Below, piece after piece: positions 53,032 through 53,198 of a stretch of DNA of 64,000 nt. The position numbers were made by a program, and so were the translations under genes. Source of the DNA: Escherichia coli (GTDB taxonomy: Bacteria > Pseudomonadota > Gammaproteobacteria > Enterobacterales > Enterobacteriaceae); the NCBI RefSeq assembly GCF_003334405.1, contig NZ_QOWM01000010.1. One strand, 5' to 3'. Position 1 is the first letter of the stretch. Each line of letters opens with the position of its first letter. The notes beneath the pieces were generated by a model, which saw only the letters and a list, made by a program, of their open reading frames with translations, was not told the DNA's origin and did no database searches.

Positions 53032-53198
53032 CCACTCCTGCTATGCTTAAGAAATTATTCATAGACTCTAAATAATTCGAGTTGCAGGAAGGCGGCAAAC
53101 GAGTGAAGCCCCAGGAGCTTACATAAGTAAGTGACTGGGGTGAACGAATGCAGCCGCAGCACATGCAACTTGAAGTATGACGAGTATAGCAGGAGTGG
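53032..53198. repeat. ERIC / IRU (enterobacterial repetitive intergenic consensus) element
   Basis: Core ...gtgaagccccaggagcttacataagtaagtgactggggtgaacgaatgcagccgcagcacatgcaacttgaagtatgacgagtatagc... flanked by terminal inverted repeats ccactcctgctat (53032..53044) and atagcaggagtgg (53186..53198); fills the whole dxs-yajO gap. Confidence 0.85.

Follow-up and report, generated by a model that had tools for sequence, protein, structure and literature searches.

We describe here the intergenic spacer between the genes dxs and yajO in a 64,000-nucleotide stretch of Escherichia coli DNA (the window, whose numbering is used throughout), together with the copy of the enterobacterial repetitive intergenic consensus (ERIC, or IRU) that lies within it. 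The window is E. coli K-12, with 100% identity to MG1655 over the query, and a window position x corresponds to 491,338 - x in NC_000913.3 and to 490,562 - x in NC_000913.2, as confirmed by exact sequence match. The genes xseB, ispA, dxs and yajO follow one another on the + strand, and the 179 nt that separate dxs from yajO (53024-53202) carry no annotation in the RefSeq MG1655 record. The same adjacency, with dxs directly upstream of yajO, is found in all 80 species-level genomes that have a yajO orthologue. The product of dxs stands at the entry to the isoprenoid (methylerythritol phosphate, MEP) pathway, and yajO has been discussed in the terpenoid-engineering literature; given the role of dxs and the RefSeq annotation of yajO as a 1-deoxy-D-xylulose 5-phosphate (DXP) synthase, regulation at this junction is of some practical interest. 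The features of the spacer are listed below, with alleles that lack ERIC at this site referred to as empty and those that contain it as filled.

51161-53023, + strand: dxs (stop codon 53021-53023), preceded by xseB and ispA and followed by yajO, whose ATG is at 53203
53030-53041, + strand: CUCCACUCCUGC, the left arm of a host hairpin that opposes the yajO Shine-Dalgarno (SD) sequence (anti-SD arm), present in all empty alleles and identified by covariation
53045-53061, + strand: what is left of the host hairpin loop upstream of the insertion; empty E. coli alleles have the same sequence
53062-53188, + strand: ERIC/IRU miniature inverted-repeat element of 127 bp (TA + 123 bp + TA), delimited by the allele difference and the limits of similarity
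53103-53146, no strand: central core of ERIC, spanning both primer sites and holding the core inverted repeat (53109-53140)
53131-53202, + strand: spurious N-terminal extension of yajO (MTGVNECSRST...), the right arm of ERIC in translation
53189-53198, + strand: GCAGGAGTGG, the right arm of the host hairpin, with the yajO SD AGGAG (53191-53195) 7 nt before the ATG

Identity and limits of the ERIC element

The segment from 53062 to 53188 is an ERIC/IRU mobile repeat, a non-autonomous transposable element of the miniature inverted-repeat kind (MITE), and in recognizing an element of this family the initial annotation of the locus was right. The exact 32-nt ERIC core CCCCAGGAGCTTACATAAGTAAGTGACTGGGG is present at 53109-53140 as a single copy in the window, with none expected by chance, and the two standard ERIC-PCR primers, which 246 papers cite as a pair, each match with a single mismatch and likewise with none expected (ERIC1R at 53103-53124 on the - strand and ERIC2 at 53125-53146 on the + strand). 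The ERIC2 primer sequence on the + strand places the element in the same direction as dxs and yajO. The element is intergenic between these two co-oriented genes, and both RNA ends and double-stranded RNA (dsRNA) map across it.

The extent of the element is smaller than was initially proposed, namely an ERIC of about 165 bp that fills the entire spacer and has 13-bp terminal inverted repeats of its own. Its boundaries are seen directly in comparisons: the difference in length between filled and empty alleles is 125 bp, and ERIC copies from unrelated loci resemble the K-12 sequence from 53062 to 53188 but have flanks that are unrelated (nhmmer and alignment; the copies aligned were from the ispA-dxs spacer of two species, the upstream spacer of Phytobacter/Kosakonia, Raoultella, and the region upstream of E. 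coli preT). The element is thus 127 bp long, and the 38 nt to its left and 14 nt to its right within the spacer are conserved host regulatory DNA. Both of its termini end in TA, reading TAGACTC...GAGTATA in K-12 and TATACTC...GAGTATA in the preT copy. The inverted repeat does exist, being perfect over 13 nt (53032-53044 and 53186-53198) and extending to 16 nt at 94% (53032-53047 and 53183-53198), but 10 bp of it belong to a pre-existing host stem (CCACTCCTGC / GCAGGAGTGG) and only 3 bp to the edge of ERIC and its target duplication. It starts 8 nt after the dxs stop codon, not the 9 nt given initially, although the 4 nt from its end at 53198 to the yajO ATG were correct.

The element folds well by itself, with -56 kcal/mol (z -8.9) for the + strand and -41.8 kcal/mol (z -5.1) for the - strand, and the interval 53020-53210 forms one stable long hairpin of -80.4 kcal/mol (z -8.7; 0 of 200 shuffles were as good). 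The proposal that a long stem-loop is transcribed with dxs and yajO is borne out by this fold together with the published Term-seq, transcription start site (TSS) and dsRNA data described below. The 348-aa, GTG-started open reading frame (ORF) that extends yajO upstream to 53131 had been regarded as an artefact, and rightly so: it is a mechanical read through the repeat, and RefSeq and all of the orthologues begin at 53203. Rfam is without an ERIC family, and the sole relevant match among its models is V_AS5 (RF02818), which aligns with 53061-53184 at 52.5 bits (E 1e-9), below its gathering score of 96; matches to symR and Ysr49 (E 0.6-0.8) were dismissed as chance.

In itself this is an ordinary and already known ERIC copy, with 19-21 copies cited in the literature for K-12. 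A copy-count query with coding flanks of 173 nt from dxs and 198 nt from yajO matches 2-11 places per E. coli genome, the dxs-yajO locus itself being part of the count, and nhmmer finds copies at other loci in six fetched genomes. Another E. coli strain has a copy upstream of preT. We also note further copies near the same operon in other genera, some of them in the ispA-dxs spacer (L021 at 1942-2060, L080 at 1940-2060, L026, L030 and L038 at 465-585, and L081 at 7543-7665 on the - strand).

The presence or absence of the element at this site is polymorphic within E. coli, and the complete genomes are distributed as follows.

Filled, any form: 2,844 of 5,426 complete E. coli genomes (a right-junction query also gives 2,844)
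Filled, long form (207 bp): 123 genomes
Filled, 127-bp form: about 2,721 genomes, by subtraction
Empty: about 2,582 genomes (~48%), counted as those with no place covering 80% of the query, the sampled ones being 125 bp shorter

UTI89, Nissle 1917 and IAI1 (phylogroup B1) are empty, and the UTI89 spacer is only 54 nt long (TCCCTACTCTACTCCTGCTATGCTTAAGAAATTATTCATGGCAGGAGTGGCAGC). Empty sites already hold both arms of 10 bp, C(C/T)ACTCCTGC and GCAGGAGTGG, as well as the next 20 nt after the left arm and the yajO SD at its normal distance from the ATG; because both the outer 10-bp repeat and the SD are present there, they are host DNA, and the segments 53032-53061 and 53189-53198 are found in every empty allele. 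Comparison across the Enterobacteriaceae, which had been suggested at the outset, gives the same picture: presence and absence of the element are both seen, but the empty sites retain the outer arms and the SD and so do not correspond to loss of the whole interval. Among the other enterobacterial species, 74 of 80 are empty, E. whittamii included, with spacers of 54-75 nt.

E. albertii is filled at the identical site and carries the long form, which has an extra 80-nt structured module in the ERIC right arm (L002 at 599-678 and L085 at 161-238). This module occurs in 646 of the 5,426 E. coli genomes, usually once, either at dxs-yajO (123 genomes) or at the same internal position in the preT copy (about 500 genomes), and K-12 is without it. 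Two Phytobacter species and Kosakonia sp. S29 have an ERIC in the same hairpin loop, but it is offset by 1 nt and belongs to another ERIC subfamily with a different core loop (L026, L030 and L038, about 3860-3985). Given a core of another subfamily, an offset of 1 nt and more than 70 lineages that are empty, the parsimonious reading is that this loop of roughly 25 nt received ERIC independently at least twice, and on the same grounds a single ancient insertion common to Escherichia and Phytobacter is disfavoured. A metagenome-assembled genome (L037) retains only the fused ends of ERIC (CTTACTCGAAGTAAGACGAGTAA), an internally deleted remnant. As to the target, the TA duplication that is known from ERIC is compatible with the empty site of Citrobacter, ATTCATAGC, and all E. 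coli empty sites seen read ATTCATGGC, which leaves the duplication ambiguous among TA, AT and ATAG. We note that the junction bases are CATGG in E. coli empty sites and (C/T)ATAG in the filled sites of K-12 and E. albertii and in the empty site of Citrobacter, and that the long allele has CATAG at its left junction and TATGG at its right.

The host hairpin and the yajO ribosome-binding site

The DNA on either side of ERIC forms a hairpin of its own, and this conserved host hairpin is of more interest than the ERIC copy within it. In an anchored alignment of 70 distinct empty spacers the sequence CTCCTGCTATGCTTAA has at least 90% identity at every position, falling to about 50% just downstream, and the right side retains GCAGGAG. 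The stem is 11-12 bp long, with eight pairs fixed and the outer pairs covarying, such that one position is found as G-C, G.U, A-U and U-A and another as C-G, U-A and U.G. Over 52 distinct sequences the 12 pairs are maintained in 93.8% of cells, and four pairs change on both sides (23 cells); none of 500 shuffles reaches the observed score, and a slid partner is paired in only 31-56%. The empty-allele hairpins fold at -25 to -31 kcal/mol with z scores of -5 to -7. Because the G.U pairs work in the + strand RNA only, an RNA structure is favoured, and the palindrome as a DNA-level binding site for a protein is disfavoured.

In the computed structures this hairpin buries the yajO SD by pairing it with the anti-SD arm. 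Strains and genera free of ERIC have the AGGAG of 53191-53195 unaltered in sequence and in spacing, contrary to the initial proposal that the repeat supplies the ribosome-binding site of yajO. The cost of opening the region from the SD to the AUG depends on where the RNA begins:

Empty alleles (77), read-through from dxs: median 18.3 kcal/mol, range 13.9-22.5
Empty alleles (77), start inside the loop at the predicted sigma-S +1: median 4.5 kcal/mol
K-12, with ERIC: 18.8 kcal/mol for read-through, 3.9 kcal/mol for the loop start
UTI89, without ERIC: 18.2 kcal/mol for read-through, 4.9 kcal/mol for the loop start

The suggestion that the repeat affects yajO translation thus finds no support in the computed opening cost, which for read-through RNA is 18.8 kcal/mol with ERIC and 18.2 kcal/mol without it. 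That the computed SD sequestration is unchanged by the insertion would explain why the insertion is tolerated. The hairpin with its embedded sigma-S motif is seen across about 80 enterobacterial species (L004-L083, around position 3940-4000), and among the papers found in searches on yajO there is none that describes it. We also note a C/U-rich, G-poor tract (e.g. TCCCTCCCCTTTTCC) between the dxs stop codon and the hairpin (53024-53031), which is present in nearly all genera and might be a Rho loading site or provide extra copies of the anti-SD.

RNA ends, candidate promoters and double-stranded RNA

Published transcript data place several features in and around the spacer, alongside the promoter-like motifs that we find there.

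53016-53031, + strand: TGGCATAAT, an extended -10-like motif overlapping the dxs stop codon; 53031 is the start of the yajO 5' untranslated region (UTR) in Adams et al.
53040-53050, + strand: GCTATGCTTAA, a candidate sigma-S extended -10 with 11/11 matches to the literature consensus KCTAYRCTTAA
53183-53191, - strand: TGCTATACT, a candidate antisense extended -10 combining host TGC with the ERIC terminus TATACT
52611-53175, - strand: antisense transcript running from ERIC into the 3' end of dxs (operon 437,387-437,951 in NC_000913.2)
52983-53169, no strand: S-43, a cluster of RNase III dsRNA products captured by p19 (Huang et al. 2020)
53203, + strand: dominant RNA 3' end by Term-seq, NC_000913.3 438,135 on the minus strand (supplements of Adams et al. 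2021)

The 3' end at 53203 lies 2 nt beyond the last paired base of the composite hairpin. Adams et al. 2021 give it a score of 38,352 and a Rho score of 2.89 and place it within a region of Rho termination whose peak coordinate corresponds to 53280, and in the rhoR66S mutant a fusion with the yajO 5' UTR and ORF rises more than 2-fold. Their intrinsic-terminator score at 53203 is 1.03 against a threshold of 3, there is no U-tract after the stem (GGCAGCAUGCAAUAC), and a terminator scan finds no terminator at the hairpin. A strong 3' end of this kind would fit an untranslated yajO leader that is terminated by Rho and trimmed back to the stem.

On the sense strand the motif GCTATGCTTAA has the hexamer TATGCT at 53042-53047, TG at -15/-14 and C at -13. 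The window holds two matches to KCTAYRCTTAA, with 0.12 expected, and the 11/11 match is kept in 68 of 80 orthologous loci, where it is the sole match in each locus of roughly 9 kb. It forms a near-invariant segment that is dispensable for pairing, next to loop sequence of about 50% identity. The predicted +1 is at about 53054, which puts the start of ERIC near +9 of the sigma-S transcript so predicted. In Peano et al., yajO appears as a sigma-S regulated gene, with Weber 2005 as the source, and a sigma-S chromatin immunoprecipitation (ChIP-seq) peak is given at 437,329-437,469, or 53093-53233 in the window. Together with the motif these observations suggest that a sense sigma-S promoter may be active within the hairpin. 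The start at 53031 lies 7 nt after the motif TGGCATAAT, which is limited to some genera. The other exact KCTAYRCTTAA match in the window (GCTACGCTTAA, 2557-2567, + strand) lies within a 1120-aa ORF of the opposite strand and is probably due to chance. A further + strand promoter-like arrangement, TTAAGA-18-AATAAT at 53047-53076, is the only one that the promoter consensus scan picks out, a hybrid that takes its -35 from the host loop and its -10 from the left arm of ERIC. We also considered a small ORF beginning at the conserved ATG in GCTATGCTTAA and rejected it, as no SD precedes it and species differ in its length and frame.

On the antisense strand the junction reads CCACTCC-TGC-TATACT-CGTCAT-A, with the final A at 53176, exactly 7 nt past the hexamer and thus at textbook spacing. 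Huang et al. 2020 report in their supplement an antisense TSS at 437,386(+) of NC_000913.2, which is this same position, 53176. Empty alleles carry TGCCATGAAT here and are without the TGCTATACT motif. The antisense RNA has 3' ends at 52962/52965, and the S-43 cluster, which starts 8 nt from the antisense TSS, extends 41 nt into dxs and so beyond the hairpin. S-43 is classed as 'new antisense' by Huang et al. 2020 and is the fourth most abundant dsRNA cluster overlapping protein-coding genes in their stationary-phase data, with perfect sense/antisense duplexes of 21-22 nt and 22-nt phasing from 53168. From the arrangement of these motifs we infer that the ERIC insertion created an antisense promoter at the junction and that the dsRNA cluster results from it. 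The sigma-S ChIP peak encloses the footprint of this candidate promoter and is possibly a further consequence of it. A second reported antisense 5' end, at 53069 (437,493+), falls in the left end of ERIC without a convincing -10 and may be a site of processing by RNase III or otherwise. A term search of the texts of Huang et al. and Gordon et al. does not turn up the word ERIC.

Elsewhere in the window, the spacer between panE and yajQ has a perfect inverted repeat of 18 bp around a 12-nt loop (46733-46780) that coincides with the RNase III site at 444,573 of Gordon et al. 2017. The same authors mention an RNase III-related hairpin '5' of yajO', which we discarded as evidence for the spacer studied here, since their tables and primers indicate a slip for yajQ. 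A REP-like palindromic unit (GCCTGATGAGACG / CGTCACATCAGGC) lies at 54186-54218 between the yajO stop codon and the end of pgpA, and the interval 54185-54253 on the - strand gives a weak match to Rfam naRNA4 (24 bits against a gathering score of 59.5).

Interpretation and relation to known systems

The explanation that we favour, at a probability of roughly 0.65, is that an older, conserved regulatory hairpin received ERIC in its loop and that an antisense promoter arose at the junction. The element would have entered at a TA in the apical loop of a hairpin shared across the Enterobacteriaceae, in which the anti-SD arm after the dxs stop codon (CUCCUGC...) pairs with the yajO SD (...GCAGGAG). 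Read-through RNA, whether from dxs or from the 53031 start, would have its yajO ribosome-binding site hidden and be poorly translated, and such RNA would be subject to Rho termination inside yajO and to trimming to the hairpin base, giving the 3' end at 53203. RNA from the embedded promoter (+1 at about 53054) would be without the anti-SD arm and would leave the site exposed. The self-complementary ERIC would stack on the host stem, lengthening the hairpin to about 170 nt with the same computed sequestration of the SD, and would put 125 nt of structured RNA at the start of the yajO leader. On the other strand, ERIC TATACT and host TGC would together make an extended -10 promoter, and the antisense RNA would form a duplex with the sense RNA along ERIC and the 3' end of dxs, to be diced by RNase III. 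The causal chain from translation to Rho termination is one that we infer, as would be any effect on fitness. The fuller proposition, that the spacer is a promoter-dependent translational switch across the Enterobacteriaceae and that a strain-specific antisense promoter made by ERIC in K-12-type E. coli explains both S-43 and the yajO sigma-S ChIP peak, is more tentative, and we would put it somewhat short of an even chance.

Several observations weigh against this explanation. The sigma-S ChIP peak at 53093-53233 misses the sense -10 at 53042-53047, and the sole traceable sense 5' end is 53031, the 5' UTR start of Adams et al., rather than about 53054. A simple promoter consensus scan flags neither of the proposed promoters, because both are without a -35 match. 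The p19 reads at the ERIC core are strand-biased by about 90:1 (79,229 sense against 882), and some of the p19 signal could come from an intramolecular hairpin. The target-site duplication is fixed no better than to within 2 nt on either side. The folding calculations ignore co-transcriptional kinetics, and the arms of the hairpin are parted by 150 nt in the presence of ERIC, not 25 nt. Lastly, the equal opening energy with or without ERIC and a polymorphism of roughly 50:50 fit a neutral passenger with no selected role.

The last of these points defines the strongest of the alternatives, in which a selfish ERIC is tolerated because the host hairpin is undisturbed, and the antisense RNA and dsRNA are noise as far as dxs and yajO output is concerned. 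It is in keeping with the unchanged SD opening energy, with the empty site in ~48% of genomes, which extends to variation within phylogroup B1 (IAI1 is empty and an O111:H8 strain is filled), with the internally deleted remnant in L037, and with the literature, in which we found no published phenotype. S-43 is nevertheless among the most abundant dsRNA clusters of K-12, the yajO leader acquires 125 nt of extra structure, and two independent insertions have occurred in the same loop, although none of these demonstrates an effect; we regard the neutral interpretation as a serious possibility that falls a little below even odds. It is unlikely, by comparison, that the RNase III products derive from the intramolecular ERIC hairpin of the sense RNA and not from a sense/antisense duplex. 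The near-continuous hairpin of roughly 60 bp and the sense bias of the core reads are what such an origin would predict, but the captured pairs are perfectly complementary, come from both genomic strands and have 2-nt overhangs, whereas the arms of ERIC are mismatched and Huang et al. say that p19 misses imperfect stem-loops; moreover the cluster reaches into dxs, and both an antisense TSS and an antisense operon are mapped.

Two further alternatives concern what the hairpin does to the upstream RNA. Reviews report that Yersinia ERICs are co-transcribed with flanking genes and undergo an orientation-dependent conformational change that exposes an RNase E site, and the K-12 copy is co-transcribed too; the dominant 3' end at the hairpin base looks like protection and not internal cleavage, however, and we think it improbable that the element destabilizes dxs mRNA in this manner. 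A very stable stem with a strong 3' end within 2 nt of it also invites the view that the composite hairpin is the intrinsic terminator of the xseB-ispA-dxs operon, but with no U-tract, a negative scan, a published score below threshold and an end inside a Rho termination region, we hold this to be very unlikely. Least credible of all is the initial view of an ERIC of about 165 bp whose own terminal repeats provide the ribosome-binding site and 5' UTR of yajO: the inverted repeat of 13-16 nt is real and the whole 167 nt do form one hairpin, but the empty alleles refute this view, since the two outer arms, 20 nt of the loop on the left and the ribosome-binding site are all retained there, and the flanks of other copies are unrelated outside TATACTC...GAGTATA, in agreement with the 125-bp allele difference.

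The comparisons correct the anatomy of the locus, assigning the ribosome-binding site and the supposed terminal repeats to the host and not to the repeat, and insertion of ERIC into an older hairpin would offer one structural explanation for several published K-12 features, namely the top-ranked cluster of RNase III dsRNA, the antisense RNA that lacks annotation, the ChIP peak of sigma-S and the 3' end at the yajO start that is linked to Rho. It is plausible that the junction antisense promoter accounts for otherwise unexplained K-12 signals, and both it and the host hairpin with its embedded promoter would be modestly interesting parts. Because about half of E. coli strains are without ERIC here, findings made on this spacer in K-12 may fail to carry over to Nissle or to B2 pathogens; the published features are probably strain-specific, and if the proposed origin is true, the S-43 and sigma-S ChIP signals should be missing from the ~48% of E. 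coli that have an empty site.

The element itself conforms to the ERIC/IRU/RU-1 family (Sharples & Lloyd 1990; Hulton et al. 1991) in its 127-bp length, central inverted repeat, both primer sites, TA-ended termini, long imperfect hairpin, transcribed intergenic position and polymorphism among strains. It departs from the family only in its left terminus, which is TAGACTC in K-12 and not TATACTC, and in its context, the conserved host hairpin loop that made this copy look 40 bp longer than it is. Correia elements create promoters at insertion junctions, and their hairpins are processed by RNase III. These Correia/NEMIS elements of Neisseria are likewise small, palindromic, co-transcribed MITEs, and reviews mention Correia promoter sequences; at dxs-yajO an ERIC end joined to host DNA appears to make a promoter, and the locus is a hot spot for RNase III. 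However, they form an unrelated sequence family, promoter creation at dxs-yajO is putative, and RNase III acts there on a sense/antisense duplex and not demonstrably on a hairpin. The ERIC-like V_AS5 family of Rfam (Vibrio antisense RNA AS5, typed as an antisense RNA) aligns full-length over model positions 1-129 in both sequence and structure, and ERIC-like repeats have been reported in V. cholerae, but with its score below the gathering threshold the K-12 element is a relative and not a member.

The position of the composite hairpin resembles that of the repetitive extragenic palindromic (REP) and bacterial interspersed mosaic element (BIME) 3' stem-loops, in that an operon closes with a stable stem-loop and, once Rho has terminated transcription, the RNA 3' end lies at the foot of the stem. 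It differs in that the protective stem at dxs-yajO is largely host-encoded and exists without ERIC, which is not a REP. The host motif matches the extended -10 of sigma-S promoters, KCTAYRCTTAA (Weber et al. 2005), at all 11 positions, including C at -13 and TG at -15/-14, and the host hairpin buries the SD as classic translational operators with SD-sequestering leader hairpins do. The peculiarity of dxs-yajO relative to both of these systems is that the candidate promoter sits in the arm and loop of the very hairpin that it bypasses.

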